This document shows, piece by piece, positions 4,666 through 64,000 of a stretch of 64,000 nucleotides of DNA. Below the pieces are notes generated by a model. That model worked only from the letters and a program-made list of their open reading frames with translations, made no database searches and was not told where the DNA came from. How positions within the stretch are numbered: the stretch's first letter is position 1; each line of letters begins with the position of its first letter. A program made the position numbers and the translations under genes. The stretch comes from Dicyema japonicum. Lineage: Eukaryota; Animalia; Dicyemida. The DNA is taken from contig RDEW01000007.1 of NCBI GenBank assembly GCA_011109175.1, positions 153,424 to 217,423 of the forward strand. Direction: 5' to 3'.

Positions 4666-4739
4666 TTGCGGAGATTTGACGTTTTGAAGGTCGTAATTCC
4701 CGGATTTTTGAATTTAAGAAAATCATATACATGTGTGAG

Positions 4740-6432: not shown

Positions 6433-6439
6433 TTAACAT

Positions 6440-6536
6440 GACAGATGTTGACACCTATTTTAAATAAATAATGTTGACACCTGTCAAATCACCTGTCATC
6501 ACGCTCAGCGCTCGATCACTCTCAGCGCTCGCGACA
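6440..6536. mobile_element. Solo terminal remnant of a Ginger-like DNA transposon
   Basis: Ends AGCGCTCGCGACA|TATT, identical to the right terminus of the element at 39804..42086. Carries short subterminal direct repeats (TGTTGACACCT x2, CTCAGCGCTCG x2). Confidence 0.55.
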
Positions 6537-6544
6537 TATTTAAA

Positions 6545-13849: not shown

Positions 13850-15180
13850 AGTATTATTATTATTAGCACTTTCACGAGAGCCATAATATTTATAGCATGT
13901 GCAGCAAAAAATATAAGAGAATTAGTTAGATTGCTCCAAGCTCTTCTGTTCTTTGCTAGGTCCCTCAGTGAGTCCAAATCGTCACCAGATGCCAATGTTT
14001 TCTTCACGGCTTTCAGATCGTTTTGTAGAACGACCGGGAGGGTAGTTCTCGGTCTTCCACGAAAGCGTTTTACATTGGAGGAGTAATCTTCCATTGCGAT
14101 GTTCGGAGGGGATATCGGGTCCAACTTCAGGACGTGTCCAGAAAGTCTCCAACGAGAGCTAATGATCTCGTGGCTTAATGGTTTACAGTCACACTTATTG
14201 TACAGTCCATTCCGCGAGATCTTGGATGACCAGGATTTTCCAGTTATGTTTCTTAGATGATTCCTTTGAAATGAGTCTAGCCTCTCCAATTCCTCTTTAG
14301 AGGTGGCTCAGGTCCCAGAGTTGTATAGTAGAATTGGTTTGATGAAAGTTTCGTATAACATAATCCTTTGTTTTATGTTATATCCTTTCCGTTTTAGCCA
14401 AAGATTTTTAAGCCTTTGTAATGCCGCATTTGCCAATGTTTTTCTCCGTATGATGTCTTCGCTATCTCCTAGTAGTGAGCCAAGTTTCTTTATGTGTCTC
14501 CATTTTTCTTCGAGTGAATTGTTCATTCTTCTTATCTCTGTCCGTTTGTTTTTTCCCTGTTCACGGTGAGAAACCATTTCTCAAGTATATCTGGTGCTCT
14601 TTCTAGTACATGCTCCAGGAGTTCTTTGTCTTCAGAAATTAGGTCGACATCATCAGCATAAATCACTTCTTCTATTTTTCCTTGGTATAATAGTCTCAGT
14701 TCCCTCATAGCGGCCTCCAAGTATATTGTGAATAGTAGGGAAGAGAGGGAGTCTCCTTGAGGAGTGCCTGTGTTTGTTTCAAATTTTCTTGAGTAGGTTT
14801 TTCCAACTCTCACAAGGAGCTCTGTGTTAGATAGAAGGATTTGAATCATTCTTAGACTCGATTCGTCAATAAACCCTTCCAGCACTGTCATCAATTTTTT
14901 CCTGTTAACTGAGTCAAAGGCTTTTGATAGATCTATTCCAGAATGTGGATGGCATTGCAATATCTTTGATGTGTTACACATCTCCATCTGTGACTCCAGA
15001 CTGCATCAGTTGTTGATCTTCCTTCTCTGAACCCACTTTGACTTTCGGGTAGGTATTCATAGGCGAGTCCTTTTATTCGTTCCAATACAATGTTAGGTAA
15101 GACTTTCCGTAGAGAATTTGATAATATAATTGATCGTAAGGTTTCAGCCGGTCCTTTGGGTTTATTGGGATTTGTATCTT
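13850..15180 (-). mobile_element. RTE-clade LINE (RT and 3' end)
   Basis: QSGFREGRST, IDLSKAFDSV, GTPQGDSLS, YADD, GRPRTT; tail GTGCT(AAT)n. Confidence 0.9.
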
Positions 15181-15419
15181 TATTGATGAACTTACCCAAA
15201 ACCTGAAAAAATTAATTGGAGGCCGTTTTGAATGGACACGCCTCTAACATATTCAATGTTTTTGCACTTTTTTTACCTTCAACGACCTGGTCTGTCACTT
15301 ACTACTCAAGCAGTGACCATTCTTTTGATGAGAAACCTTGAATATAAATATGATTATGTTACAATATGTTATTTATTAACCGAGGATCACCGAGAAAGAA
15401 AGACAAAAGTAATGCCAAC

Positions 15420-36112: not shown

Positions 36113-37207
36113 ATGGATAGAGTTGATTCATTTGACAGAGATCTGTCCAAAATGACCAAGGAGGAACTAATTAGTCATATTCATAAACTTGAGAATACTC
36201 ACCGAGATCCACCTTTAAAATCTCGTGCTAAACTAATGCGTCGTCGTGATAGAATATCCGAAATAAGTGAAACAAGACACGTGGCATTATTAGTAATGTA
36301 TTTTGGATGGAATTATGGAGGAATGGCTAAATTGGGATTGAATGAGGGTGATTTAAGTGTGGAATATCAAATTATATTAGCTTTGGACAAACTTGGTCTT
36401 GCAAATATGGATTGCATACTTCAAAGATGCGGAAGGACAGACAAGGGAGTCTCTGCTATTTCTCAAGTTGTTTCATTAAAACTTAAATCTAATCTAAATT
36501 ACAATAAGGAGTTCAACTACACAACCATGCTGAATTCAGTACTTCCAACAGATATTAGGATTTTGGCATGGTCTCCTGTATCAGAGACGTTTAATGCTAG
36601 ATTTTCATGTAAAAGTAGAACATATGTCTATTATTTCCCGCCAAATGGGTTTAATATTCAAAATATGAATAAAGCTGCTCAATATTTAATTGGGACTCAT
36701 AATTTTTCTAATTTTTGTTGTAAATCAGAAATTCAAACAACTGTTCGTACAGTATTGGAAGCTGAAGTGAGCATACAAGAATCATTGGCCCAATTTAAAG
36801 TAAAAGCAACAGGATTCCTTTATCATCAAGTTAGAATGTTTATTCACTGCCTTTTGTTGATTGGTAAAGGATTAGAGGATATTGACTTGATTCAACGTTT
36901 ACTGAATACGGAATTAATACCAGAGAGACCAACGTATGGTCCTGCCCCAGCCTTTCCTCTTGTTTTCTTTGATGCATCTTATCCGGAGGATGAGTTAAAT
37001 TGGAATTATGATTCATATGCCTTGGAGAGATCCTATTCACTATTATATAAGGAGAGAATTCAATTGGAGACAAAAACACAAGTAATTAAATTAGCAGAAC
37101 AGACTATTAAACAAAGAATATGTGATTCTAAAGTTATCGAGGATTTATCTATTTCCAAGCTATTCCTCAATAAATCTGGAAATAATTATAAAAATGTTAT
37201 TAAATAA
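36113..37207 (+). CDS. PUS3: tRNA pseudouridine(38/39) synthase, TruA family, eukaryotic PUS3/Deg1 type, intronless, 364 aa
   Basis: RHVALLVMYFGWNYGG, RCGRTDKGVSA (catalytic Asp), LNSVLPTDIRILAWSPV, ARFSCKSRTY, FLYHQVR. Confidence 0.95.
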   Translation: MDRVDSFDRDLSKMTKEELISHIHKLENTHRDPPLKSRAKLMRRRDRISEISETRHVALLVMYFGWNYGGMAKLGLNEGDLSVEYQIILALDKLGLANMDCILQRCGRTDKGVSAISQVVSLKLKSNLNYNKEFNYTTMLNSVLPTDIRILAWSPVSETFNARFSCKSRTYVYYFPPNGFNIQNMNKAAQYLIGTHNFSNFCCKSEIQTTVRTVLEAEVSIQESLAQFKVKATGFLYHQVRMFIHCLLLIGKGLEDIDLIQRLLNTELIPERPTYGPAPAFPLVFFDASYPEDELNWNYDSYALERSYSLLYKERIQLETKTQVIKLAEQTIKQRICDSKVIEDLSISKLFLNKSGNNYKNVIK

Positions 37208-38990: not shown

Positions 38991-39919
38991 TAATTATTAT
39001 TAGCACACCGCAAAACAACGTTAGTAAAGTTATCTCGCTTGTGCCACCCTCTCCTGGATGCGTTTTGTTAATCGCTTCCAGTTCCTTCTGTTCCTCGATA
39101 GGTCCCTCAGGAGGTCAGGATCATCTGCCGACGTCAACCTTTTCACAATCGAAGTTATGTCTTGATGTAGAAGGGTTGGTAGAGTAATTCGTGGTCTTCC
39201 TGGAAAGTCGATCCCGGATGAGGAACATAGTGGTGTTCCATTGCAAGATTAGCGGGAGTATTCCTGTCCATTCTTAAGATGTGACCAAATAATCTGTTAC
39301 TTCTTATTTCTCCGTCCAATGGGTGGATATTGTAATGGGAATAAAGGTATTTGTTTGATATGTGCTTTGGCCAGGAAATTCTTAGAATGTATCTGAGCTG
39401 CATTCTATGAAAGAAGTTCAGACTTTCCATTTCCGGCGTTGTGAGTGCCCAGGTAGAAGAGTTGTACAGTAAAACCGGTTTTACGAAGATATTGTATAAT
39501 TTGATTTTTAAAGAGGCAGAAATTTGTTTACCTCGTAACCATACGTTGTTTAGTTTTTTAAGAGCGAAAGCAGCTGGTGATTTTATTCGTAGTATTTCTT
39601 CTGTCTCTCCTAAGAGAGTGCCAAGTTTCTTCGTATGCCTCCATTTTTCCTCGTGTCGTTGTTTGCATCGCTTTACTATTGTATATTCTGTTTTCTCGGT
39701 GTTAATTTTTAGGAATGATTTTTCAAATGTTTTGGCCAATTTGTCGATTTGTCGTCTGTTGTCATCTGCGAAGATAACTTCCATTATATGTTTGGAGATA
39801 TTATGCCGCGAGCGCTACTTGCAACTATGCGCTACCTGCAACATCGATTTTTTTTCATCGAAAATAAACGAATAGTCTTAAGACACTCACAAGTCGAACT
39901 CACTGAAAGAAACCAGTTT

Positions 39920-40250
39920 ACTCAATAATAATAATAAAGCCTTTTCACGAGAGCCATAGTATTTATAGCTCCGCATAGGCAGGACACACACTTTATTTAA
40001 GTAAAGAACAGTTAATTTTAACTAATCGTAGAACCAAGGAATGATCTTCACTTCTTTTTTTCTTTTCTTGTGTGAGTGTCCTTTCTAGACAATCCAGTTC
40101 CGCAGTGAGTATTCACTGATGACGGCGTCACTCGTCAAACCATTTCTGCATCGTAGATGCGTGGAACCTTCCACCAGGTGAACAGCAGCGAGATTCGAAC
40201 CTGTAGCCTAAGCCACTTAAGCCCGACACCTAACCACTAAGCCACCCAGT
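39920..40250 (-). mobile_element. tRNA-derived SINE, copy 1
   Basis: A box TGGCTTAGTGG and B box GGTTCGAATC, followed by a non-tRNA core shared with 46740..46925. Confidence 0.8.
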
Positions 40251-40490
40251 TTAATCAAAAAAACATAAAATTAAAATTATATAAAGATTTATGTTATGCT
40301 TTAAAAATTATAAAATTGAATTTATTTTTTAAATCATTAAATTATCTTAATAAATTAATTTCAACAATAAAACTCTTAATTTTCCAATATTTTAAACAAT
40401 TTAAAATTCCAGGTTAGACGATTGTATTCATTTAAGTTTCAATTAAGACAAAAAATTCAAAAAAATATTTTATTTATAAGAAAGGATAAG

Positions 40491-41914
40491 TCACTTCTTT
40501 TTAAGCTTTTTAACGCGACTCATGTGGACGATCTCGGTATGTCCCTCATTTGATTGAAGTGCCATTCGCTTGTTAGACAATATATCTACGACTTTCACTT
40601 TTTCACTGTAGGGAAATTCAAATTTCCCTAACTTTAGCGAGGGAATTGTCCCATGGTCTTTTTTACGCAAACCTATATTGTCAATGTAATTAACTAACCT
40701 CATCTCCTTTGTCGAATGTGTATTTTGAGCAATGAACACCCATTTTTCTGTTCATTCTTTTGAAATAAGGGGAATTCAAATCTAGTGGACAATGCATAAA
40801 GTCAAATTCTATGAAATAATAAAAAATTGATAACCTGCCTCTCCAATTAATTTAACGAATCTCTCTGTTTCAATTTGAGTTTCTAAATTTTCGCTTAACT
40901 CTCAAACCATTCACAACTGCTTCATTTTTTTCAATGTAGCCTACATAATGGAGAATTGGATTAAATCCTTTGATGCCTCTGTAACGACGAAACGGATTGT
41001 CACCTAATTTATATATAAGGCCATACAACCTGTTGAACTATGATAACTAAGATTATAAAATTGGACAGCTTTTTTAATCTGTTTTTTCCAACATTTATTT
41101 GGATCATCAAACAACATCTTCGACAAAGTTCGAATGATTGTCTGATTGAATCTTTCTACAATTCCTTAAAAAATAATTCAATTGTATACCTTGACTACGT
41201 GGGTTGTTTGGACGTGAATGAATTTGAATAATGTTATATTTCTTGCAAATTGCAGTGACATGTGAGTTTTTAAACTCGGAGCCATTGTCCGACTGTAAAT
41301 ATAAACATGGTCCATAATCCATGAATATATCCTCAAGGTTGTCAGCAACTTCCAAACCACTTTTTTTCTTTAAGCTTTTTGTAATAGCATATTTTGAATA
41401 AATATCAATAGCCGTTAAAAGCCACGAATAACCATCATTATACTCACTAAACCTAGAGAATATAAAAAAATGATACCTTTTAAGATCGATTAAATCTATT
41501 TGAAATCTCTCATTGGGCCGAGTTGCAATTATATGATTTTCTTCATCATATTCCTTAAGACTTCTGGCAAAAAGACATGTCTCACAATTAAAAACAACAT
41601 CGCGAATAACATCTCTTTTCACAAAAAAATATCATTCTTTACAATATGTTTCTAGGATATTTTGGCCACAATGTGTTAAATCATGAATTTGAGTAGCGAC
41701 AAACTTCATTTCCTCAACGTTGTCAAAAAACAATAACCAATTTATCGCCTTCTGGGTCTTTTAGATACATTCTTCCTCCTTTAAGAACGAAGCTCTTGGA
41801 CTTTTTTCGGATCCTGTACATAGCATATGCAGGCACATCAGTAGGTAAGCCTCCTTCAAGAATAATTTTGAGATTAACATATTCAACAGATGTCTTAACA
41901 AACAAGCGTGACAT
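40491..41914 (-). pseudogene. Ginger-like integrase/transposase (H2C2 + DDE core + GPY/F-like tail) with micro-introns; disrupted
   Basis: HDLTH...CETC, FQIDLID, AIDIYSK, QSDNGSEF, SQG|IVERFNQT, VHMSRVK. Introns at 41453..41476 and 41165..41189, candidates at 40809..40834 and 40673..40698. In-frame TGA at 41632..41634 and frameshifts. Confidence 0.8.
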
Positions 41915-43699
41915 AACAATTCAAATTAGTATTAATAGTTTATAATAATTTTATATAAAATATATTTATATTACTAAAAATTAGAATTTTAATCCAAAAG
42001 AACAATTTTTATAGATTCAAAAATTCAAAAAATTCAAAAAAATCGATATTGCAGGTAGCGCATAGTTGCAAGTAGCGCTCGCGACATATTATTCCTGGCC
42101 TCTCGTAGGGTTGCCTCCAGATATGCGATGAATAAGACCGGGGATAGGGCGTCTCCTCGGGGGGTGTCTTTGTTCAAAATACTCTGGATTTCTGATTTCT
42201 GAGCTGGATAAATAGTTGAGTGGAGGAGAGTAGATAACGAATTATTTTGATGCAATCTTCCTCGAGTAGTGGTGTTAATATTTGTATCATTTTGACTCTG
42301 CTGATTGAGTCAAATGACTTAGATAGGTCGAGTCCTATTATGTGGTACTTCTCTTTATATGTTTGGCATGAAACACACATCCATTTGTGTCTCCAAAAGG
42401 CATCAGAAGTTGATCTTCCAAAGACAAACCCACTTTAGCTAGCTCCGATGAATCCACGTAGTGGGGCTTTTATTCTGTCCAGAGCAATTAGCGATAGAAT
42501 TTGCACAGTGAGTTGAGTAGTATGATTGGTCTCAAGCTGTTTAGCTTTCCTTTTTCCTTCCCCGTTTTATGCAAAGGGATTACTTTTCCGATGTTAATTC
42601 TGGAGTGTTCCTCAAAAGATTTGTTCAGATTGTGAGTAATGAGTTTTTGAAACTCTTCAAAAGCGTATTTTATGAGCTCTGCATTAATATTATCTGAGCC
42701 TGGAACTTTTGAGTCGTTTAGTCTGGTCACAGCCTTTTTAACTTTTGTTAAAATTATTTCTGGTGATGGCTTTCTGGGGACTCCATCAAAAGGATAAAGC
42801 TTTTCTTCGTTTACAAAATTGAAATATTTTTGTATTGATCAGCTATGGTGTCTGTGTTGTTGTAAATGGTTCTTCCGAGTTTATCATGAACTGTTAGATT
42901 TTCAGATTTCTTCTTTTGTCCTAGCATTTTTACAGACGCATACATTTGCGCTTCGTGTACTTTCCTACTTTATTTGCAAGGTTTTGTAGCCCTGTTACGT
43001 GGTTTATCTGACATTTTTTCTTGATTTCTCGAATAATTTTGTTTCTTTGGATTTTAAACTCAGTTGCTTTCACTTTGTTATGGGTGTTCATGCATTTAAT
43101 AGGTAGATCCTTTTGTAAATGGGGGAGGTGATCTATATGTGGATCGTGTATTCCCTTGAAGGTTTTTGGAATTGCCCCAATCGTGACAGAGTGACCTCCT
43201 TTTGATCGACGACTTTAGTCCTCGAACGTTGAAGGATGGTAGCATGAACAGAGAGTTTGAAAGAGTAAAAAAAACATTAGTGCAATTTGAGATGCGTCAC
43301 CAACCTCAACCAAAAAAAATCATCTTGGTTAATAATCAACTTAATATTTTCGAAATAATTGTATGAGTAGATTGGTGATGACTTTTTAGGTTGTATTCGT
43401 TCGATATAGCAATAAACTGACATATCATACAATGTATTTTTCGTTCCAGGACTTGTCTACAGGTAACGACATTGTCCCCGGGGAAAGAATAGTGGATCCT
43501 CTTGATGCCAGCCAGGTATGGGATGTCTCCTCAGTAAGGTGGATCCAATGACGCCATCGAAAAGAGGGAAAATAATTTTTGACAAACTAGCCACATAGCA
43601 CCACGAGGCCACGTGAAGATCAAGAAAAAATTTACCCTACGTCAACACAAAATAGAATGGCTATTGATGTGAATCTATCCCCACGTTATTTCGTTCATC

Positions 43700-46739: not shown

Positions 46740-46925
46740 TTCCTAGACAATGTTCTTTGATTTGTATTTGTGTGAGTCCATAGTTCCATAGTGATAAAAC
46801 ACTGATGACGGAGTCACTCGTCCACCCAGAAGCATCGTAGATGCGTGTAAACCTACATCAAATGGACATCAGCGAGATTCGAACGTGGGACTTTCTGCTA
46901 TTTAGTCCGGATCTTATTAAACTGC
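46740..46925 (-). mobile_element. tRNA-derived SINE, copy 2 (diverged)
   Basis: B box GTTCGAATCTCGCTG, core CACGCATCTACGATGC and GACGAGTGACTCCGTCATCAGTG matching copy 1. Confidence 0.75.
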
Positions 46926-47968: not shown

Positions 47969-48951
47969 TTATTTATTAGTGGAATTGCGTCCTTTCAAGA
48001 ACACGAACTTCCTAGATTTAATAACAGTTCATTTATGTCGATTAAAGTACACCCAAAAGGGTGTAATCATAATAAGAGCAATTAATATCTTTATTAATTA
48101 GAAATAAAACCTTAATAGCCATTCGTTTGTGATCATCAATATCGGGGTCACTCACCCATTTTAGAAAAGAACAGACATCCTTAGCCATTTGACTAATAGT
48201 AGCAGGTGTACCTCTAATATACCATAATAATTACCATCATCAAAATCCATCATTCCATCACTAAGAGGAGGTGCCATGGCGATAGCACAATCAGGGAAAT
48301 ATGGATTGTAATGTAATCCATCCCCCATTACAAAATTATTGGGTGGTTCTTCTTCATAGCCTGTCAGTAGTGAGAAAATATAATCCTAAACTAAAGCAAT
48401 AATAAAACTTCAGTTCCAGGACGTGCTCTACATATATAACTCATATCTGGAGGGACAGCACCATTATTAGCAAGTCTAGCAGTCTCTTGATTAGGATAAG
48501 GTCGAGGAAGGTAATCGTTTATAATGCCTGAACGTTCAAACATTTCCCCCTCATCATTAGGTCCATCAACAACATCATTCTTTGAATATTAATAATAATA
48601 ACCTCAGCAGCTTCAGTTATAGCTTCATCTTCAGTTAAAATGACATTAATCATATGTCGATATCTTAAAAACTTAATGGAGTGGCATGTTGAACATACTT
48701 GTTTGTACACAAAGTATCCTCTTCGAATACTATAAATATAAGTTAATTATAACCTTTTGTGGTCAAGAGCAGAAAAAGGACCACTATGAGGCCAACTATA
48801 TTTGTTGTGAGCAATCATTGTTGATTTTGAGTAAATTGTAAAACAACTACCAGCCAACACACCAATTCCAACGGAGGAGTAACCCAATAATTTATAAATC
48901 TTAATTATATATAATAATCACATTGGATCTAAAACGACCAAACGAAAACAT
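47969..48951 (-). CDS. CYC1: Cytochrome c1, heme protein of complex III; 6 micro-introns (22, 24, 23, 23, 23, 22 nt); in-frame TGA at 48029..48031
   Basis: [32 protein letters not shown] (CxxCH), [51 protein letters not shown]-terminal TM helix then RHK*TVIKSRK. Confidence 0.95.
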
Positions 48952-49317: not shown

Positions 49318-51590
49318 TTATATTTTAATAATATTAATAACAAATCCAGAAATAATAATAAGTAATAGAGTTATTCCAATATTGACAATATTATAGTGAT
49401 TAACCAATTTCATTTTATATATTGCCAATTTAGATGATAACCACGTCTCAAATAATTGTCCAGCATTCGTATAATATAATTCAGCAGAATGCAAATCCTT
49501 ACCAATTCCCAAACCATGTTCATACATATATCCAATATTAAACATTGCTTCATAATCAGTGAGTGATATAGCCAAATAATGATTAAAGGCGGAGGACATA
49601 TCAGTCGAAATACCCAATCCATGGTAATACATTTCTGCTAATATTTTGTGAGCACCCATATTATTATGTTTGACCAATCTCTTGAGTAATTGGACAAGTC
49701 TTTCATTAGCATTATTTATATTCAATTTAATGATTCCCTTCAAATCTATGATAATACTACACTTAACTTTTATAGAGAATATAGACTGCATTATCAATAG
49801 CAGGGACAACCCCTATTTCAATCAAAAAGGTATAATAATTGTATGCTCTCTGATAATCCCCATTCTTCCATAATCTATAAGCTTTCATTGCTAAATATCT
49901 CCAAGGACCATTATCTGTGACTACTTGGTTGAGCTATAATATCACAATTTGGTAACCTCAGCAGATATTGAACATGATTCAAATATTCCCAATCCAATAG
50001 CATGTTGCTCAGCCAAATAGAAAATAGAAGGAATATTTTTCATAACACTTCCCAAAGTGAATATTTCTCTTGCATTATATTTTTCACTATCATCATATCC
50101 AATCCCGAACAATTTCATTATTCCATAATGTAAACAAGCATTTCCATCCTTAAATGTATTATCGTCAGTAAAATAGTTAGCATAACTAGTATTGAGGTAT
50201 TCTCTAGCACGTGTATAATTCTGATCAACTCCCAATCCATATAAATACATAATTCCAAGTCCAGTATATGCCTCTGACATATTATAACTAACTCCTTTGT
50301 CAAACAGAAACTTTGCATAACTATAATTCTTTGAAATGAAGGGAGTTCCCTCCAAGTAAAACTATTATAATAACAATACTAACATGGCCAAGGAATGAGG
50401 CGGCTTCCATAGAACCATGAGAATATGCATCATTAAAAATATCAAATGCTTGTTTTAAAGCATTAGGATTATATGATGAATCACCCAGAAGGAATTTAGC
50501 CACATCAAGCTGAGTTTGGGAATGTTTTGAAAAGAATAGAGACACATAGTTAATATATTCTGATTGAGAACTATCCCATGATATATAGTTGTGTCTATCC
50601 TTAGAAATGGTAGGGAAGTCACCAATAATACTCTCCCATTTGGTCATATTTGTGACAACTATTAATTAATCACTAAAATACTTAATTTAGATATATCCCT
50701 AAGACGATCATTCGCCTGATGACAATCCTTCTCTACTGATATTCCACGTAAATATCTATGAGCCTTATATTATTCAAACAATAACCATATTAAGACCAGC
50801 AAACATATTCTTCTCATAATCTGAACTTTGAATGAACATTAGTCCACGTGGAAGATCAGCATCAACATAAAGTCCTACAGAATAGAATAAGCCAATAGCC
50901 TTAATAAATAATAATAATACATATTGTGCGAATGAAGAACCCTCCAATGCTAAATTAGTAAGACTATTTACATGTTCTGTCTGGTTATCATACAAAACAT
51001 CCATTAAAGTGATAAAGCTGTAAATAGCATTACCATTATTTCCGAGTCCTTTAAGGGTATTCAATCTCAATATACAACTAATTGTACTCAGAGTTATTCA
51101 AATCCTCAATAAACCATTTGTTAAGAATGTCATTGTGGGGAAGTGAAAATGAATCCTTATGAGTAGTCCAAAAATCATTGAAATCATCAATTCCACTAAA
51201 AGACATGTAAGGAGAGGAGATAACTAATATATATTTATCAATTACTTCGAATTCTATCATTATTTTTCACAACGTTCAATACTAATCATTATGAATCCTT
51301 ATGAGTAGTCCAAAAATCATTGAAATCATCAATTCCACTAAAAGACATGTAAGGAGAGGAGATAACTAATATATATTTATCAATTACTTCGAATTCTATC
51401 ATTATTTTTCACAACGTTCAATACTAATCATTATATACATAAATACGCTTAGAAGATGATCTTTTGTCGTGGGAATCTATATATTTGATGTTATAATAAT
51501 ACTTATTCTTTCATATAATGAATTGTCAAATAATTGTCGGGATTCTACTTTTAGTATAATTATGGTTAATAAGAACATGGTACACATCAT
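49318..51590 (-). CDS. SEL1L: SEL1L/HRD3-like Sel1-repeat ERAD protein; 10 micro-introns of 21-26 nt; 5' part affected by exact tandem duplications
   Basis: Signal peptide, Sel1 repeats (AYTGLGIMYLYGLGVDQNYTRAREY, AMFNIGYMYEHGLGIGKDLHSAELYY) and C-terminal TM. The frame stays open after splicing when the 142-bp duplicate is removed. Confidence 0.85.
51149..51432. repeat. Exact 142-bp tandem duplication inside SEL1L
   Basis: 51149..51290 equals 51291..51432. Confidence 0.95.
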
Positions 51591-51808
51591 CCCTTTTATT
51601 TATTTTAATTTTATGTAATTTAAAATAATTATAAATATTGGGAATCTATATATTTGATGTTATAATAATACTTATTCTTTCATATAATGAATTGTCAAAT
51701 AATTGTCGGGATTCTACTTTTAGTATAATTATGGTTAATAAGAACATGGTACACATCATCCCTTTTATTTATTTTAATTTTATGTAATTTAAAATAATTA
51801 TAAATATT
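51471..51808. repeat. Exact 169-bp tandem duplication spanning the SEL1L start and promoter
   Basis: 51471..51639 equals 51640..51808. Confidence 0.95.
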
Positions 51809-51839: not shown

Positions 51840-54800
51840 CTCCACTTCACTGGGGGATTTCCATAAATACGAAGAATGGACGTTTTCCACTTCTCTACCG
51901 ACGTTTTTCTTTAATCGAACTACTCTCGTCTATTGTTAGAAGGTCGTTGTGATACTTTTTCATGCCTGTCGTTAGAAAAGCTACTACAAAAAAGAATACT
52001 AAAATCAAAAAGACTAACTCTGGAGAGGTCTTAAAGGAGAATTATATTGAAAACGATGAGACTACCTCTGGAGGGGTTTTAAAGAATAGCTGTATTGAAA
52101 ATGTTAAGGATCTGTCTCTGAAGCCTCCTTTTGAATACTCTGGGAATGCTTTTATACAAATCACTGTTATGTCAAATATGGGAGCCATCAAAATCTCTAA
52201 CTTACTGTACTCGTTCGACTTGACAGGGTCTATCAGATTGAGCCACAAAGGCTCCGGGATCTTCCGCCTCGAATTCAGGAAGGAGGAGGACAAAAGAAAC
52301 TTTTGTGAACATGTGAATGCTACTTCACCTTTTGGTCTTGGAAACCATTGCTTCAGTGAAATCCGAGTGAGACCGCCTGAAATTGTGTTGAAGAACCTGC
52401 CCTTTTGTGTTGATGATAACGACCTTCATGAATTTGTCAAGAAATTAGCTTCCTCTACTACGAGCATATGCCGTTTCTACAAGGGAGATAGGACACTCCC
52501 TCTTGCAAAAGTTCTAGTTGGATCAAGGGCGGAGGCTACATAGAATGTCACTCTTGGTTTCAACGTTGCCCACGTGCCAATTACATGTAAATAGTACAGA
52601 AGAGGCTCACCTAGGTGTTTCAAGTGCTAACGCTATAGACACATATCCTCCTTCTGTAAGGAGAAGACAAAATGTCTCCGTTGTGCAGGGGAACACGACC
52701 TGACTGCTTGTGGAGAGATTCCTGGGAACATAATGAATTGCATAAATTGTGGCTCGTCCTCACATTGTGCCAGATATGGTGGATGCCCAGCCGCCAAGAA
52801 ATCTGATCAGAGGAAAGCAACTAAAGGCGATGGACATGCGATAATAGGCAATATTGGGAGAACGTGGACAGCAAAGACAGTTATGTCAAAGTCGGCACCT
52901 AAAATTTGTCGAAAACCGAAGGATGTCTCACCCAATCTATCAGAGAAGATACACGCTGAAATATCGGAGATTATGTCTCGGTTAAACAGTTTGTGCTCTA
53001 TTGCACATGCGGATTTAATGGAAACGGTGACCTTGGCTTTGAAGAAGCAAGGTCACCTAAATGTTTGAAGCAAGGACTAAAAATAGTGCTAGTGAATGCC
53101 TGATCCTTAGGGAAAATGCATAATAAACTAGCACTACTTGGAGGGCCTCCAAGATCGACATCTTGGTTGTCATTGAGACGAAATTAAAGAAAGCGAAGAG
53201 TAATATAATGACTGGATACAATTCTGTGGACATTTTATGGAAGGCTGGAGCAGTTGCTGGTACGGGAACGTCTATTTTCTACCGGGAATGCCTCCGAATT
53301 CGTAATCCAAAAGTCGTTTGTGATGCATTGTGTGAATTTGTAAGCATGGGCGTTTGATGCGACGGAGTATGGATTAGTGTGGAGGTCTATACTCTAAGAA
53401 TCTTGAGACTTGTTCTACAGATATCACTGAGTTCTACAACAAGAATCCTTATACTATCTTAATTGGGGATCTTAATTCGAAGAACACTAGTTATGGTTGT
53501 AGCAAAACAAATCAACATGGACGACGTTTAGAAATATTGTCTGATTCATGTGGCTTTGTGATCCTTACGTCGGATGACCCAAATCATTTTTCTTATCGTG
53601 GTGGCGACAAACTCGGCGTGTTCCTAGTATCGCCAGCTCTATCTGTGTATGTGGAAAAGCCAAAAACTCTATGGGATATCGGGAGTGACCATATTCCACA
53701 AGTATTAGTTATTACTTTGAGACCAGATGTTTGGAAGATGTCTTCTTGAGGTTCAACATATCTAATTTGGATTGGGCCCACTATAGGGTCTTCATATCCA
53801 ATAATTTGTTTGTTCTACTGAGAGAGTTTTCAACCATAGAAGGTATCAATGCTGCAAGTAGAGAATTAACAAATCTACTGCAGTCATATCTTCGTCTGTA
53901 TTCACGAAGGGTTTTCTCAAAAAAATCATTATTTTGTTTCGTCAATTATTATGAGGCTTATTTGGGAGAGGAATCGCCTAAGGGCAAAGCAAAGACGTTG
54001 TGTTGACAAAATAGACGGGGAATTCATATCAGCCAGAATCAGGATGATGAAGGAAGCAATCAGCAATATATGGAAGGAGGAGACTGACCGTATATGGAGG
54101 GCTGAGGCTGCAAAAATTGATATGAAGAATCCCTCTTTTTGGAAATGCTATCAGAAGATAATGTGTCCGAAGTCAGGTGCAGAAAAAATTATACTGGATA
54201 AACCAGACGGGGGAGTATGCATAACGGAGGAAGCACCTTCAATATTCAAGGATCAGCTCCAAAAAATTCAGGGTGTGGATCCGTGGAGTTTGATCCTTGA
54301 TAACAAAAAGAAGGTGTCTGCCGATATATTTAAACACTCTGACAAGGAACTACTTATTGCTGATAGCACTGTCAGCATCTTTGAAGTGATGAAAGCTATT
54401 AGGGAATGCAAGGTCAATGCTCCAGGATATGACCACATATCAATGAAACTTATCAAAGAGCGTCCGGATATTTTGTTTGACTATCTGCGATGTCTTTATG
54501 ACGGGTGTTTGCGACTTGGCCACTTGCCTCTAATATGGAAGAAAGCTGTTGTGAGGATGATTCCAAAACCAGGGAAGCCAAAAAGAGATCCGGCAAGCTA
54601 CAGACCAATTAGCTTGATATGTTCTTTCGTGAAAGTGATTGAACGTATCATTTTCAAAAGGCTAAGCAGACATATAAAAGAAAACGACCTTCTGATTCTG
54701 GAGCAGTAGGGTTTTCGTCTCGGAAGAAACTGTGCAAACTGTTTCTTTCTACTGAATTCTGAAATCATGAAACAAAGGATTCCAAGAGACAAATAAACTT

Positions 54801-56006
54801 ATTATGTCTTGATATCTCGAAAGCATTCGACAGTGTATGCCATGAAGCGTTGTTAAAGCAGCTTGTATCAGCATGTGTTCCAACATACCTATTTGTTTGG
54901 CTAAGAAATTATCTTCAGGAAAGATAATCTTTTGTGANAGAAGAGAATGACTTTCTGTTTCCTGAGCAGTAGGGTTTTTTCCAGAAGAAGCTGTGCAGAC
55001 TGTTCCTTTCTACTAAATTGTGGAATCATGAAAACAAGGGATTCCAAGAGGCAAATAACTCATTATGTCTTGATATCTCGAAAGCATTCGACAGTGTATG
55101 CCATGAAGCGTTGTTAAAGCAGCTTGTGTTCCAAGATACCTATTTGTTTGGCTAAGAAGTTATCTTCAGGAAATACTATTTTTTGTGAAGGTTTGTGGAA
55201 ATATATCCGATGCAATGTTATTCAAGAGAAGAATACCACAAGGTTCAGTATTGAGCCCTATTTTGTTTAATATATTCATTGCGAGTTTTCCACGTCCGAG
55301 GAATATTAATACAGTATGACCTCCATTTGGAACAGACCTCTGTTTTGGGAAACCTCTGTTTTTGGGACAATTTTTCAAAATGGATGCTCCGAATGGAGGT
55401 TATACTGTACTAGACTTCTTATTTATGCGGATGACGTAATCGTGGTAAACACAAATCTTCTATATCTGAAGGAAAAATCCGGGAGTATGTAAACCAGATT
55501 GACCAATGGTGCAGCTTGAGAGGGTTAAAGCTCTCTACTGAAAAGTCATGTACACTCCGAATAAGCAATGTGAAAAGTACCTGAAACAGAAATACACACT
55601 GGGAGTAAACAATGCACACAATCTGCGCTACCTGGTGGTCGACCATGGACACGCAGGATATTACATGGACGACATAAAGGAGAAAAGAAAGAGAGCTTTT
55701 CAATCACTCCTATGTACAAGGAAGTTATACGTTAGCATTGACACCTACCTATTCATCCTCAAAGGAGTTATTCTCCACAGCCTACTTTATGAGTGCGAGA
55801 AGTGGTTCTCCTCTCCGTAGAAGGAGAAGATCTTATTCATCCTAGAGAAGACTAGGAGGGCTGCAATTAAGCTTTCCGTAAACAAGAAATCGAAAGACTG
55901 TCTAAGCGAGGACGAAAACAAGCAGTTAGAGCTGATTGGCAGGATTGCGGAGGATCGGATCAATAGTTTCAGAAAGAGATTAAAGATCCAGGACACGTAT
56001 ATAAAA
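51840..56006 (+). mobile_element. Near full-length Jockey-like LINE family J1 (ORF1 with three Cys/His knuckles; ORF2 APE+RT), degraded
   Basis: ORF1 51962..53068 (IVLKNLP, knuckles); ORF2 IDILVVIETKL, GSDHIP, DPASYRPISL, LDISKAFDSV, IPQGSVLSP, YADD. Internal duplication around an N at about 54937. Confidence 0.92.
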
Positions 56007-57469
56007 CTCGGAAAACCTCTTTATCACATTTCCATCGTGTTCTTTTAGACATATTTTCTCCACAAATCTGTATACTCTTGAATGCCTTTTCGCGTGCTCT
56101 ACTAAGGTTGTCTTCTTCATTATAAACAATGGGCTCACATGATTATGGATTTTACGGGTAGGTTGAACCCATAAAATTATAAAATGGAATCTGTCTCGTG
56201 CTTTTATGAATAGTAATATTTTATTGAAATAAAATATATTTGTTTCTAAATCGGCCATTCCGTATTTTTAAAAACTTTCGATTACTACCACAACCTTTTA
56301 ATTACTTAATTCTAATACCCATGAGTATTCGTCGTTTATGTGAGAACAAGTCGATAAGATCGGCTAGATATTTGTCACGAGGTTTTTTTTAATTATAAGC
56401 GAAATTGGAGGTTTAGTCGACATTATTCTTGTGGTTTGACAAAAGATGCACCTATTACTTCTTGAACTTCTTTTCTCGTTAGATTGTACATTCTTTAAAA
56501 GACTGTATAACCTGTCTCTACCAAAATGGCATAATTGTGTTCAGTATATTTTTAAATCAGCAACACTAGTTACCTCAATCACTAGAATCTTTTATTCTGT
56601 TTGATCAGACGTAAAAAATCTCATCATGAATCCATTTTAAGGTAAAATTGTTTTTTATTTTCAAACTCAAAAGATTCACAATTTACTGAGCTCATATTTT
56701 GGCCTTTTATGAATTTGAGGACAATCATAATTCATTTTTAATTTTTATATTTTTTCCATTTCGTACGGCGACAGACTCAGGTAACTCATTTTATCGTGTG
56801 GAATGGATTATACTTTATTAAAATAGTATTAAAAAATATATAATAAATTGATATCATTATCTCATTATTTTATAAAATAATATGTTTTATTCTAAAAATG
56901 TGAAGTACAGTCGGCAAATGGCGGGNTATTTGGAAACTTTGTGACCAATTCTGAAACACGAGATAAAGGAAACCAATCCAGCCTCATTCGGGTCTCTTCC
57001 GTTCCTACGTTCAATGTCAAAAATATTGGAAAAACTAATTTTTTTAATAACTAAGGACGATCTACTAGACATGTCAATTCAGCACATGTTCAAAACAGAA
57101 CACTCAACTTCCACCTAATTTTACACACTGACAGTTTTGATCGTCATTGGATTCGCAAACCAATCATCTAAAAGCTGTTCTCTGTTTCGTGAATGTTCAT
57201 AATCGAATCTGTTCCTATGAGAAAATTAACTTGGAAAATATTCCATTAGGAATTTCTAGAAACTTTAGTTGATTAATTTTTCTTAGTGGAAAAGGTGGTC
57301 AAGAATTACATTCTACATGAAATATTTCGGATAACATTTCAGACACTTGGGCGACCCACTAAGATTTTGTAAGGAAAAAAGAGAACATGTGACTTTTACA
57401 ATTAACAACAGTGACATGAATGTAAAAAAAATTTTTTTCTATTAAAGTGTCACGTACGTACAGGAAGTG

Positions 57470-57570
57470 AGTCAGTTCTCTGGACAAACACCGTGAAAGG
57501 ATGAGGCGGATTTTAAAGAACGCCGGGATCACCTGACGACCACGTATCTTTTTAATATGTCTGATTTAAA
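57470..57570 (+). mobile_element. Extreme 3' end of an I/Jockey-like LINE
   Basis: LWTN.V...ILKNAGIT* (57522..57536). Confidence 0.65.
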
Positions 57571-57649
57571 TAAATATTTTGTGGATACTCAGATTGGTAG
57601 TTTATTTATTAATATTTATTCTATTAAGGAATATTTTGATAAAGTTATT

Positions 57650-60600
57650 AATAATCCCAATTAAATTAGTAAATATCTAATGTGCGTAAATAATCCTTAA
57701 AAGGCGGCAATTTCATTTTCATCGAACAAACCGATAATTCTCTCAAACAAATAATTCATTAAGCATATTTCTGTTTTATATCATTCTTAACATTATCGGA
57801 TATATGTGCTTTGTTTATTCTTCCAGAAAATATATTGAGGGAATTGAGCCACACAAACATCTTTCTCAATATTCTATTATTAATAAACATGCCATACATC
57901 TATAATCCTACTTGATAATATTTTGTCTAATTTATTCACAAATTCATCCAAATCACGTCTGAATTTCATTACATCCTCATTTGTAATACTACTTGGCATT
58001 AATTTATTGCATTCATTAATAATTCCAATATTCAATCTGTCATATTCATCACACATATCTCTTAAATGGTCATTATGCGGATTTATTCTCAGTAGATTTT
58101 CAGCCCAAATACGTGGATAACTCAAAAGCCTTTCATTTTCTGTTTTAAACTGCAAAAGTTAGAAAAGTCAATTACTCGTATAATTGAAGGAAACTTATTG
58201 AATTTTTCTAAATTTTTAATAAAGTTTATTGTCAAATTAATAATATTTATTATTTCATTTTCATTTTCTAATCTAAAGTCTTCCAAAATAATTCCAGTCA
58301 AGGAGATCAAATTATTCCACGCAGAAATAACATGTTCGAAATTTTCAGTAATATTCCCCTTCAAGTCATTCCTTCCTTCTAAATCAAGATTTTCATAGGA
58401 AACAATCAATTTCCCCATAAGTAATAAATTTTGGTATAATAAATTAATGTTAATCTGTAAAATATATCAATATATAAACCAAATCATCTCTTTCCTCATT
58501 TAATATATCATGGAATTGTTTATTCAGTTTTACTATTAATTCTATATTTTGGTGACAAATTTCCGTAAAATTATTCCATTTGCTGAGAGTCTCTTTAAGC
58601 CAATGTTTACGATTATTAATCATTATTTTAGCCTGTTTAGCATATTCGGATATATTTTCTAGTGATTTCTGTAATTTTTTCTGTTCATTATTACAAATGT
58701 TCCCGGTTAATTCACATAAATCACTCAATGATTGTATTCCTCCTACATGTTCATCAATTTCCTGTTCCAATTCCTAAATAAATTAATATAGAGTAACATT
58801 TAGTTTGTTAGTAAATGAATCAACTTCTGCAGATGTTCCGTCAACAAACACTAATGGAATGTTTAGGGAGTCTCTAGTTAACGACAACCATTCCTCTAAT
58901 ATATCAAAATCATGATTTATTGATAATGACTCTTTTGCATTGACAATACTACAATATAACATGATAATACTATTTTATCCCCCGGTACAGCAGTGATTTC
59001 CATTTCAAGTCAACTTCATCTAACAGTCTAGATTTTTCGGGTGGTACATTTCCTAGTTTTGTCAGCTGTGTTTTATGATTTTTGAATTGTCTAATCAATG
59101 CCTCGACATATGGTAGAGGATTTTCTGAACTTTTCATATTCTTTAGTATGTCTTCAGCTTTTCTACAATTTTATATATTTTGTCTGGTAGATTAACAGGT
59201 ACTTTAAGTCTTCTTTTAATTTCCTCCTCAATTTTTGAAAGTTTATTAGTTATACAAACAACATCAAAAACCCAATCAAATTTTGTAGGAGCAATCTTTT
59301 TGGCAATTATTTTTAAGTGTCTGTTTGTAGTCTTTCCTTTCTTTATATATTTTTTAAGTTCAACGAGTGATTCATCAGACACATTTTTGTTCATAATATT
59401 TTCAATATAAAATAATATCTCATTCAATGATGTTAATAATTGTTTCAATTTATCTTCGTCATCTATTCCACAATATTCACTTTCAGCAGTCTCATTCTCG
59501 TTTATGCTAAATTTATGATAACAAATACTTTAACATAACACCCGCTATTTTTGACATTTCATTCTTAAAATAGTCCATTACTTTATTATATTTTGTATTA
59601 TTTGATATTTTTGATAATGGTACTTCCATCTTCTTTATAATGTCTTGTAGTTTTTTCATTTTGAGGGGAATTGTATCTTCTGACCTGTTATTTAACTCTC
59701 TGTGACATTCTTCCAATATATTCTGTCCCTTCTCTGCATAAATATTAAATTCTTGTTGGGCCTACAAATTTATACTTTCAATCACATCTTTTTGTATCAT
59801 TTCCTCGTTTTCGACAAGTTTAATAGATTTTAAACTAATTTTATTTAAAATGGAAAACTTTTCTATTTTCTCATTAACTGAATTCAATCGATCTCTAAGT
59901 CTGTTTACTGTAAGAGACATTCCATCATTTTGTGCAAATTCACTCAAAATTTCAATTTTTACATTTAATTGCTTTAAATGTGAAAGTATTTCTTGGATGT
60001 TTTCCAATTTAAGCTCCGCTTGATTTTCGTATGACTCAAGACTTTGAACAATTTCTTCATGCATATCATAATATGTAAAATTTTCGTATTTAAATGATCT
60101 ACGGTTATTAATTAAATTACATTGTTTCATCCATAATACTTAAATCAAACTAATTTGCTCATTACAATAAAACCTGATTGCTTTCTTTCAACGAAGCTTC
60201 ATGAATTCGGTTAAACTATAATATACATACATTATACTTGTGAGGACAAACAATTGTATCTTTCTCGTAAATTAAACTTTTCATTTTCAACCCATTGTAT
60301 TGTCCTAAGTGATCTCTCAATCGCTAATAACAAGGGCTCTTTATGCTTGATTTCCCTCAATATTTTATCAATCTAGTAAATTATAATTTATTTGACCTAT
60401 TAAGAAAATTCCTGAGCATTATAAATACTATATTTGTCAAGTTTCCTTTCATGATTGATAACCCATTTGTCAAAATCTTCTTTTTTATCTTCAATTACAC
60501 CCCACTCAGCCTTTTCCGACTTAAATCTCGTAGCAATCCCATTTATCTACCAGTCAATCGTTCGTTAAATTTATTATGACAATTTACTTATTCTGCTCTT

Positions 60601-63600
60601 AATTTTTGTACTTTCATTCCAAATGAACCTTCAAATTCGTCAAATGAGTAATTTATGACATTCTGCTCTATTATTTTGTCAAGTTGTCCATGTTTTTGTT
60701 TAATATTTTCAATAAATTGCTTTAATAGGAAAATAATAAATTTCAGTCGCCTCACTGTAGTATCTGAAAGCTGTTCTGGATGAGGTTGATTTTCTGTTCT
60801 CATTTTCTCTAATCCGCAAATTTCCATTGAAATTGATAAAATTCGAAATTTCTGAACATTCCTTTTCATGTATCTTTTCCTTTTTAAATTCATTTTCAAA
60901 TAATTCCTTTTAAATAATAAAATACAAAACCTTTTCCTCTTTGATTTTAATAGAAATATCTTTGCATTCATTCTCAAGTGCTTTAAGTCTTGGATAAATT
61001 TCATCAGGATGTTTTAATAAATCACAGGCAATTCTAGAGATGTAGTCAATTCGCTCCTTCAAGGAACTCAGCATTTTGTCACATTCTGAGGATAAATGAT
61101 ACTAAAACTTTCAAAATCTGTAATTTTTGTGGCAAACCATATCTGCCATTGTTGACATTTTCAAATGTATCTTTCAAACATCCCAAATCACTTTCAATTT
61201 TTACGACTTTATTTAATAAATCTTCTATTTCCTTACTTTCGGCAATCAACTGAGTCTCGTAACTCTGGGATCAGTTTATAAAGTGATACCAAAATATCTC
61301 TATAAAGTTCATTGTATAAAATGGCAGTTCGTTCATTAATAATACACGACGAAGCAAATGCACTCTTTAATAATATTAAAATATTCATAAATTCCTTAAA
61401 ATTTATTTCACTTTTTTTCTAATGCATGGATAAGCATCTTAATATTACAAACTATAAACCTTTAATTTTTTTAATTTTTCTTTATTGGATAAGGATTTGC
61501 TAGTAATTTCATTAAAGTAAGACTCAGTTTCTTTAATCCAATTATTCAACTCGATCTCTACAATTAAACGAACGCAGACTTGCTGTTAACCAAATAAATA
61601 CTTTGGCATCAATCTCTCTATATTAAAGTGTATTTGGTTGAATTTAAGTTCTAGGTTCTCCCAGTTCTTACTATGGAAATCAAAATCATTCCGAATTGAT
61701 CTCTTTAACTCATCACCAGTAATAAAATTACTCGCATTATCACATGCTGTTGTGAAATGACTAAAAGAGTCACCAACTGTAGTTTTCATTTCGGTCATTT
61801 CCTTTAATAAAAATAAACTAAACATAAGTCATCTCTGAAAGGGTTGATTCATTGATTGTTTTATTTTGACTTGGAGATAACTTTAATATTTTTTCCAATT
61901 TCTTTTGAGCATAAATAAAACTATTTTTATGTTCTGTGTACAATTTACATGATTTATCAACATTTTCCCAATATTCTTTCATTTTCTAAATACAAATATT
62001 AATTGTAACTTTTAATTTTATTGTTAATTCTTTCAACTTAACAATATAAATTTGGGTATCATTGAGGCAAGTCACTGAATTATCCATATTATTTAAACAT
62101 CTCTGAAACACTAAATCACCTTGGGAGCTATTTCACAAGCATTTGAAAAATATTCCTACTTTTAAAACCACTATTAACTCCAATCTGTTGGGTATGACTT
62201 GAGACATCACTCAACAAAATAAATTCATCTTTTGAAGTAATTTTATCCGTTTTTACGATTAAGTCTTCAATTTCATCCCACAGAAATTTGTCAGCCAAAT
62301 GACTGCGTTGAGAATCATTGATAAAAGTTGATAATTTGCTACAAACTTCGTTTGCAGACTGTAAAAGGGTAGAATAATCATTCTTTAATTGTTCACAACT
62401 CATTCCTTCCAATTTTGTTGAAAAATCACTTATTTTATTATCAATGACTTCTCTGTGTTTTTTTACTATATTTTCAATTCTAGGACCTGTTCTCTTGATA
62501 TTCCTTATTAATTCCTTAAAATTATATTTTTATAATAACGCATAATGCTTTCAGATTTTCTTTAATCGCATTCAGAGATACAGAGTATCATTCAAGATTC
62601 AATTTCTCTCCACATTTGTCCCATCCATTGTAGAAGACTGTTTGTCTCCATCAATATGTTTAGATTGTCTTGATTTCCATTATCCCTCTCCTTAAATAAC
62701 ATAATAATACTTACTTTGCAAAGAGAATCAATGTGATTCAATCTTAAACGAAAATTAGTTAATTCTGAGTCTTCTCCATAAATTTTAGATACTCTGTTCG
62801 TACAATAATTGTCCAAAATTTTATGCATTTCAGGTATCTCATCACGTATTTTCTGGAAAATAATATAAAATGGACTTTTAATTGAAAATATTGTTCTGAT
62901 GTTAAATTTAGAGATAAATTTCGTAGAAAAATCTCGGCATTCTCTATTTGTTTTTCTAAGTTTTGTTTAAGAGTAACATTTTCATCAATCTGATCTCTCA
63001 TTCGACCTTAAATAAGTTCAATTTAACCAAAATTTCCTTTTAATGTTTGTAGTTTGTTTTCTTGGATTATAAACTCTCTGTTGTTTTCTTTTATAAAGTT
63101 TTTGTAAAAAATTAGGACAATTAAATAAAATTTCGCAATACTCTATTCTGAATTGTTCTGAGTCTAATTTATAGCCTTGGAGAGTATTTTCAACATTCTT
63201 AGTTATTGTAATATTTTTATACATTCAACATTTCTTCGTAAATCATTAGATCTTGTTTGTTTATTGGAGGCTGGTTTTCCAACTCTTCAATTTTGTCTGA
63301 ACTAAATTTGAGAGTCAATTTTTGGTTTGACAATTTCTCCATGGAACAATCGATGATATCATTTACTCGCAAGGCTTCCGAAAGAATGTTCTACCCAATA
63401 ATACGTACAACAACGTTAATGCCTTTTTTTAAATTTTCATAATTTTGAATAATTTTAACAATTTTACCATTCAAACATGAAGAACTGGGAACATCTTTAA
63501 TTTCTTCAATAGAAGGTCCCAGTTTTTCTATTGATTTCTTAAGGTTCTGTCAGTTTAAATACTCTTAGTTACCTGTGAACTTAAATTAATTCTGGGACAT

Positions 63601-64000
63601 TCCAGAGGTTTATGGGAAATATTTTTATAATTTTTTTGAATTTGTTCAAATTTTGATAAATATTGTTCAATTTCATTTGATATTATATTTATCTTTTCAT
63701 TGTAACCATAAAATTCTTAACATTCTTTTGATCTTGTACAAAGCTGTCTCTCAACAACTTCCAGTTGCTCACCATATTTTGAGATTTGCTCATGAGGTCG
63801 AGGTTTTCTTTAATCGGAGTAGCAGCACAAATTGATTCTTTAATTACTTCTCCTTCAAGCAATAATCGTTCAATATCCTATATTTAAAACAACAATTACA
63901 TTTTCTACATTCCGAGCCATAACCGAACTGTCCAAGTCCTCAGAAATAGTTCTATGAATACTCATCTTTTGTTTAACAAATTCTTGTATTTGTCCAAATT
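57650..64000 (-). CDS. Giant spectrin-repeat protein, nesprin-1/SYNE1-like, 3' portion; many micro-introns of 21-26 nt and several single-base frameshifts
   Basis: Spliced segments LDEVDLKWKSLL, ILEEWLSLTRDSL, ELEQEIDEHVGGIQSLSDLCEL and RKHWLKETLSKWNNF resemble C-terminal spectrin repeats of nesprin-1 (recalled). The exact stop is unresolved. Confidence 0.7.

Follow-up and report, generated by a model that had tools for sequence, protein, structure and literature searches.

A Ginger-type DNA transposon with candidate introns of 24–26 nt and a transposase of microsporidian affinity

At positions 39804-42086 of the 64,000-nucleotide stretch analysed here (contig RDEW01000007.1, positions 153,424 to 217,423; referred to as the window), a Ginger-type DNA transposon was found whose transposase gene is interrupted by GT-AG segments of 24–26 nt. 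In the compound reading that we favour, and regard as reasonably probable, the element arrived by horizontal transfer from a microsporidian and then gained five or six introns at the size of those of its host, as opposed to carrying older introns that shrank. The observations that bear on this reading include the grouping of the transposase with microsporidian proteins, the absence of insertions at four intron sites in its relatives, and a contig from an RNA-like sequencing run in which one intron is exactly absent.

Boundaries and target site of the element

The element measures 2283 bp, or about 1.95 kb without a nested short interspersed nuclear element (SINE), which leaves no room for open reading frames other than the transposase gene. 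It splits a long interspersed nuclear element (LINE) of the RTE type, with these boundaries:

39799..39803, unstranded: left target site duplication (TSD), TATTA; sequence and empty-site test
39804..39854, unstranded: left terminal inverted repeat (TIR), 51 bp, at the 3' end relative to the gene
42036..42086, unstranded: right TIR, 51 bp, at the 5' end relative to the gene
42087..42091, unstranded: right TSD, TATTA; sequence and empty-site test
39155..42400 (outer limits approximate), minus strand: RTE-type LINE remnant split by the element

The TIRs are identical at 49 of 51 bp (two mismatches), the left one beginning TGCCG and the right one TGTCG, in good agreement with a first-pass annotation made from the sequence alone, which had described near-perfect repeats of about 52 bp starting TG(T/C) and a 5-bp TATTA duplication. 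In the empty-site test, the element plus k bases (k = 0–8) was cut out and the resulting junction was scored against two RTE paralogues within the window. The flanking RTE reverse-transcriptase frame was kept only at k = 2, 5 and 8, and k = 5 gave the top score (122/108, compared with 112/101 and 108/98) together with a gap-free alignment over the junction. Because excision of the element plus 5 bp restored the LINE frame with the best score, the element boundaries and the 5-bp TSD were independently confirmed. The TIRs, the TSD and the restored empty site together suggest that the element moved by cut-and-paste transposition.

The transposase gene and its candidate introns

The transposase gene was read by removing six GT-AG segments (24, 25, 26, 25, 26 and 26 nt) and passing over three lesions, as follows:

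40491..41914, minus strand: transposase gene, ATG at 41914 to TGA at 40493..40491; 423-aa conceptual product, aligned end to end with 16 relatives
41914-41477, 41452-41190, 41164-41030, 41003-40908, 40882-40835, 40808-40699 and 40672-40491, minus strand: transposase exons

The conceptual product matched the Pfam family rve (E=1.3e-14) and carries H77/H81/C110/C113 (H2C2) as well as D140-D201-E237, with 35 residues from D to E. A profile of its relatives matched Ty3 integrase across positions 41-426 of 427, and the predicted model of the closest relative, P0122, taken as a stand-in (mean predicted local distance difference test score of 72), aligned along foamy-virus and Ty3 integrases. The first-pass description of an H2C2-DDE-GPY/F-type integrase therefore stands for the zinc finger and the catalytic core, whereas the literal GPY/F motif is degenerate and a homologous C-terminal domain is supported through the relatives only. 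Judging from the relatives' alignment, the profile and the model, homologous counterparts of the GPY/F and YPYY regions appear to be present in degenerate form.

The six segments were scored with a profile built from relatives only, by retaining one segment at a time; colinearity refers to nine residues at each site. The six-intron reading scored 451 bits, and the retained scores are given for each segment:

41453..41476, minus strand: intron 1, 24 nt, phase 2; keeps the frame open and 439 bits if retained, colinear in 16/16 relatives, exactly absent from one contig of run X5
41165..41189, minus strand: intron 2 (predicted), 25 nt, phase 1; 285 bits if retained, colinear in 16/16
41004..41029, minus strand: intron 3 (predicted), 26 nt, phase 1; 344 bits if retained, best of 9 candidates, colinear in 16/16
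40883..40907, minus strand: candidate intron 4 (doubtful), 25 nt, phase 1; a frame change is needed there, 368 bits if retained, colinear in 7/16
40809..40834, minus strand: intron 5 (predicted), 26 nt, phase 1; sole frame-opening choice of 3 candidates, 369 bits if retained, colinear in 0/16
40673..40698, minus strand: intron 6 (predicted), 26 nt, phase 0; 401 bits if retained, best of 4 candidates, colinear in 16/16

Introns 1, 2, 3, 5 and 6 were each the best local GT-AG choice; this was not the case for candidate 4, for which alternatives reached 453 and 452 bits. The low colinearity at sites 4 and 5 is due to their position in a variable linker. The 24-nt and 25-nt introns of the first-pass annotation were thus recovered as described, whereas its two 26-nt candidates became three (introns 3, 5 and 6, the last of which it had not picked out), besides the doubtful 25-nt segment.

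A one-base length variant was found inside intron 5 among family copies. More generally, five length variants that are not multiples of three are listed for the gene span, not counting the two frameshifts of this copy; three of them were intronic, although introns make up 11% of that span (binomial 0.01, with homopolymer bias uncontrolled). Five of the six segments follow an exonic AG and four lie at AG/G, compared with 4/12 host introns that follow AG, a difference from which, with such small numbers, no firm conclusion is drawn. Tandem duplication as a source of the introns was not supported, since 6–11 of 24–26 bases were identical between each segment and adjacent exon stretches.

Splicing and copy variation in the sequencing runs

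Contigs of the sequencing runs X2 to X5 were compared with the window. Runs X2-X4 represent a single sample, possibly the one from which the window itself derives, and are therefore not independent support. The X5 contigs lacked 155 letters over the host gene SEL1L and 115 over the cytochrome c1 gene, while those of X3 and X4 were gap-free there. These totals equal the sums of seven and five GT-AG introns, respectively, removal of which restores the frames (cytochrome c1 keeps a late TGA); the SEL1L parse had been made by hand and was afterwards found to match the 155 gap letters. Because the gaps equal the parsed intron totals, X5 behaves as RNA, and we infer from this pattern that it is RNA.

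With regard to the transposon, a 191-nt X5 contig over 41373-41587 omitted exactly intron 1 (depth 48.5/48.5), whereas no such junction was present in the DNA-like run X3 (0/1292.8). Among the X5 junctions listed, no spliced junction was observed for introns 2, 3, 5 and 6. The host-like intron size that had been noted at first pass was borne out, although the 24-26 nt of the transposon introns are slightly more than the 21-24 nt of the host, for which 12 introns were parsed within the window (SEL1L, 7; cytochrome c1, 5; Mann-Whitney p ~0.0002-0.0008).

A variant exactly without intron 2 exists as DNA, since two X3 contigs depart at 41189 and run straight into 18 letters, 16 of which agree with the beginning of the next exon; by hand comparison, both mismatches are synonymous third positions. 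This variant may represent a subfamily in which the intron was never gained or a processed copy, or it may come from a different organism present in the sample. A further X3 loose end, at 41475, could reflect another intron at site 1 or a duplication of local sequence and was not used as evidence.

The family is multi-copy: summed X2 depth was ~530-970 over the gene compared with 22-36 at host genes, with many shared variants, a sum of contig depths that indicates many copies and is not a copy number. An internally deleted variant of the family (40741-40987 and 41157-41358), likely a non-autonomous subfamily, was deeply covered both in the DNA-like runs and in X5. The copy in the window is itself disrupted, as the first-pass annotation had it, by a stop codon and by two one-base frameshifts, namely an extra base near 41727 and a missing base near 40658:

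41632..41634, minus strand: premature TGA; Arg codon in other copies (X3 635.6/699.6, X5 23.7/23.7 depth)

Most family contigs lack the extra base and have the missing one, and the stop and both frameshifts therefore belong to this copy or to its assembly.

Relatives of the transposase and their intron state

When the transposase core was searched against 1.84 billion representatives, the best of 4249 matches was KAG0418124.1 of Dictyocoela roeselum (55% in the core, 42% over the full length). Six of the 30 relatives looked up carried an organism name, and 6/6 were microsporidian. A search with KAG0418124.1 likewise returned named microsporidia first (6/6 of those named among the top 13), the next named eukaryote being a glomeromycete at 27%. 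A word-index search of longer proteins with the transposase core yielded 0/219 candidates, and none of the 10 pattern matches in viral contigs was confirmed.

Phylogenetic trees were computed in a quick version of 60 rows and in a careful version (LG+C20+F+G4), which was reduced to 44 rows by omitting 16 that were long or redundant. In both, the window protein formed a group with one unnamed row and the five rows of Dictyocoela. In the careful tree this group was supported at 100/99 and lay within a larger group of 27 rows that contained all 11 named microsporidian rows (94/95), comprising four microsporidian genera and no named animal. An approximately unbiased (AU) test rejected the arrangement in which the 11 microsporidian rows were held together without the window protein (p=0.006).

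At the sites of introns 1, 2, 3 and 6, no insertion was observed in any of 16 relative proteins. The same holds for 71/75, 75/77, 32/34 and 3/3 metagenomic DNA loci, respectively, taken from the best 80 of 197 confirmed loci. Since both the relatives and the metagenomic loci read through the four sites, the intron-less state looks ancestral. A TIR scan of the 80 loci gave five candidates and was insensitive, as it missed the true ends of the window element itself. Distant TIR-bounded metagenomic relatives with TGT ends were located at L020:2009-4910 and L032:842-3603; the TSD of L020 is a 5-bp TATTA, the same as in the window, and those of L032 and L008 are 4 bp long.

Origin of the element and of its introns

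Alternatively, an intron-bearing animal element may have entered microsporidia and lost its introns there, or an unsampled donor may have supplied both lineages, a course of events that we hold to be rather unlikely. Transfers between microsporidia and animals have been reported in both directions (PMC4202319), and the window protein is sister to the five Dictyocoela rows and not placed within them (82/53). However, the 27-row group with its four genera contains no named animal, and because distant metagenomic loci are also free of insertions, absence of the introns looks like the ancestral condition irrespective of the direction of transfer. Distinctly unlikely, in our judgement, is the view of the first-pass annotation, in which introns of an ancestral Ginger shrank along with those of the host during long vertical inheritance. 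It would be in keeping with the 0–4 introns carried by Ginger1 elements (PMC2836005, Table 1), with the long end branch of the window protein (0.82 changes per site) and with intron sizes near those of the host. It is at odds with the absence of a named animal protein from the element's group, with relatives that lack insertions at four sites, and with the intron-2-less variant, which carries two synonymous changes and occurs in a DNA-like run. That annotation had left it between introns that shrank to host size and introns gained at it; gain fits better, while shrinkage is unsupported given the intron-less relatives, and long vertical co-evolution was not upheld. Some residence in this host is nevertheless implied by the end branch and by five or six gains.

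The microsporidian affinity would need no transfer if the host were itself an intron-rich, respiring relative of microsporidia and the element native to it, which we consider very unlikely. One Pneumocystis PUS3 did appear among the top 120 matches of the host PUS3, and the scores of one cytochrome c1 exon (52-58 bits) are no guide as between animals and fungi, but the best PUS3 matches are almost all animal (~33-44%) and the other exon scored 72-80 bits against the 16 top chains, which we take to be vertebrate entries, compared with 50-54 bits against lower-ranking chains of the budding-yeast type. Microsporidia are not known to possess a respiratory chain. The host genes are thus animal-like, and the intron-rich cytochrome c1 gene together with the PUS3 matches indicates that the host is not a typical microsporidian. 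Moreover, its 21-24-nt introns match in size those of myxobolids and a dicyemid, animals with introns below 30 nt (PMC13644364). It is, finally, highly improbable that the segments are insertions in decayed copies and not working introns, with the X5 contig derived from an uninterrupted genomic copy. The single spliced junction, the intron-2-less junction in DNA and the retention of candidate 4 in X5 would be explained in this way; on the other hand, 6/6 segments are GT-AG, four restore exact colinearity, intron 1 is present throughout X3, and length variants are concentrated in the introns as described above.

Transfer from a microsporidian followed by intron gain remains our preferred reading, and a number of points weigh against it. 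The direction of transfer rests on thin naming, because 16/27 rows lack an organism name and because protein databases would not show animal copies that are rich in introns and unannotated. The root, placed on animal KRBA2-like and fungal proteins, was assumed, and the AU test was picked after the first tree had been seen. The assembled runs that supplied many of the relatives may be RNA, and that the named microsporidian genes have no introns is itself inferred (for P0122, from 98 spare bases in a 1475-bp contig). The family is known from one broken copy plus contigs, and no intact copy was read. With regard to splicing, a junction was seen for 1/6 introns, in one contig; the one low-depth X5 contig across candidate intron 4 retains it; X5 is listed as 'DNA?' and is not on record as RNA; and, because an intron-2-less junction occurs among the loose ends listed for DNA-like X3, an intron-1-less genomic copy is possible.

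According to the favoured reading, the transposon would have arrived without introns from a microsporidian parasite, and introns would have been gained singly after arrival, often at AG/G (4/6), being kept because they fall within the size range of the host spliceosome. The latter, which handles introns of 21-24 nt, would then remove those of the transposon. A four-domain integrase (N-terminal extension, H2C2, D-D35-E core and SH3-like C-terminal domain) may recognise the TG...CA ends, cut the element out and integrate it, with a 5-nt stagger, into AT-rich target sites, in the way that has been proposed for Ginger/Tdd. Later, the 3' flank would have received a SINE insertion, and this copy would have acquired its stop and two frameshifts.

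A more tentative proposal, possible but not one on which we would rely, is that intron gain is still in progress, in that a transposon taken from a microsporidian hyperparasite gained introns serially during amplification, and coding copies that have a given intron coexist in the genome with others that lack it. If this proposal is true, a tree of copies would show in what order, at which sites and from which source sequences introns arose de novo at the lower size limit of animals. On the favoured reading itself, tiny introns can form anew and not only shrink from older ones; and since the transposon is multi-copy and at least one of its variants is intron-less, how and in what order introns were gained may be readable from one genome. 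How spliceosomal introns originate has been asked for a long time, and introns below 30 nt have only recently been documented in animals (PMC13644364). If the transfer is true, the element also records a past microsporidian infection of the host lineage; microsporidia have been reported in both dicyemids and myxosporeans (PMC4150386).

Nested SINE and other features of the window

The insertion in the 3' flank had been absent from the earlier account of the element and comprises:

39925..40247, minus strand: nested SINE, 323 bp, with tRNA-like head, RTE-like 3' end and (TTA)n tail
40248..40257, minus strand: SINE TSD copy 1, 10 bp
39915..39924, minus strand: SINE TSD copy 2, 9/10 identical to copy 1

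A run of 27 bp of the SINE is 96% identical to the RTE 3' end at 13870-13896, and since its 3' end thus matches the RTE LINE family of the window, mobilisation by that family is probable. A partial second copy lies at 46782-46887, and the SINE is present in very high copy (summed contig depth >100,000 compared with ~25 at host genes). Neither ARAGORN nor Rfam gave a match for the head, whose A and B boxes were placed by eye only.

Among host genes, PUS3 (36113-37207) is a single open frame without introns, whereas its neighbours have 3-5 introns per kb. The cytochrome c1 gene (~47990-48860, minus strand) contains an in-frame TGA at 48029-48031, beyond which matching sequence continues. This codon presumably falls at a conserved Trp, and may be explained by an error, by an allelic difference, by truncation or by read-through; the stop codon of PUS3 and of SEL1L is TAA. 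The 5' end of SEL1L shows perfect tandem duplications (142 and 169 bp, at 51149-51807) that possibly arose in the assembly. An exon at 8891-9070 matched ABC_membrane_2 just under the curated cut-off (E=2.7e-5), a family that we take to be that of peroxisomal-type ABC transporters. The AT-rich run at ~57300-64000 (minus strand) holds open frames of 60-140 aa with no Pfam match at E 0.001 except one weak one, and is probably a long intron-split host gene.

As to other repeats, LINE copies at ~4680-7700 and 51950-55900 are ~83-96% identical in matched blocks and carry zinc-knuckle, endonuclease-like and reverse-transcriptase-like frames. Inverted repeats of 60 nt, 93% complementary, at 11607-11666 and 15176-15235 surround LINE fragments; no TSD was seen by eye, and the pair is possibly another DNA transposon.

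Classification and comparison with known systems

The TG...CA TIRs with a TSD, the H2C2/D-D35-E integrase, the absence of reverse transcriptase and RNase H, and the multi-copy state place the element in the Ginger superfamily by sequence criteria, as the first-pass annotation had proposed, although it fits neither Ginger1 nor Ginger2 cleanly. Placement relative to Ginger1, Ginger2 and Tdd follows published descriptions, with KRBA2-like proteins present in the tree as outgroup only. A Polinton/Maverick was rejected, as there is no 6-bp TSD, AG...TC termini or DNA polymerase and a zinc finger is present (criteria from PMC6839031 and PMC2836005). GingerRoot was rejected because a 6-bp TSD and TA termini are lacking and HHCC is present (criteria from PMC6839031), and a fragment of a Gypsy long terminal repeat retrotransposon because the terminal repeats are inverted, not direct, and the single gene is short.

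The element shares with Ginger2/Tdd the ~50-bp TIRs, a TGT terminus, an AT-rich target, H2C2 plus DDE and the lack of OTU and Ulp1 (PMC2836005); its product ends at 423 aa, level with its relatives, and no such Pfam family was found in the 16 relatives. The 5-bp TSD is also that of TDD-4/TDD-5, whereas in animal Ginger2 elements the TSD is 4 bp long and, according to the published description, GPY/F and YPYY are missing (PMC2836005). The window family, in contrast, aligns through its relatives with Ty3 and foamy-virus integrases from the N-terminal extension to the C-terminal domain, and the KRBA2-like proteins, which together with SCAND3 are Ginger2-derived (PMC3575427), lie one long branch away in the tree. 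With Ginger1 it has in common introns in the transposase gene and, seemingly and in degenerate form, a YPYY-like segment upstream of the zinc finger and a GPY/F-type C-terminal domain (PMC2836005), but it lacks the 4-bp CCGG/CCGT TSD and the OTU or Ulp1 domain, is shorter, and its introns are only 24-26 nt long.

Proteins labelled 'Gag-Pol polyprotein' in microsporidia (Dictyocoela KAG0418124.1, Nosema granulosis, Cucumispora and Pseudoloma) agree with the transposase in length, domain order and tree group; they differ in having no insertions at the intron sites. A group of TIR transposons is possibly hidden under such labels in microsporidian annotations. Ginger-type calls have been made in a microsporidian (PMC5751038), and the word 'Ginger' does not occur in PMC8855578. 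Our literature search, with family lists in supplements and Repbase outside its scope, returned no title or opening of an abstract that describes this family, in keeping with the earlier suggestion that it is probably undescribed, or its combination of features; such family lists may already include it.

Each ingredient of this combination has a precedent. Exchange of transposable elements between microsporidia and animals, in both directions, was reported by Parisot et al. (2014), with the same kinds of donor and recipient as here, although the word 'intron' does not occur in the main text (PMC4202319). Tc1/mariner elements of Paramecium, likewise a host with tiny introns, have transposon reading frames with predicted introns (Arnaiz et al. 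2012); they belong to another superfamily, and the accessible part of PMC3464196 describes no intron-less donor group. Finally, Da Lage et al. (2013) described an intron-less foreign gene that gained several host-sized introns after transfer (PMC3584928). That case concerns a single domesticated enzyme gene in fungi, whereas the gene in the window belongs to a multi-copy mobile element with introns shorter than 30 nt.

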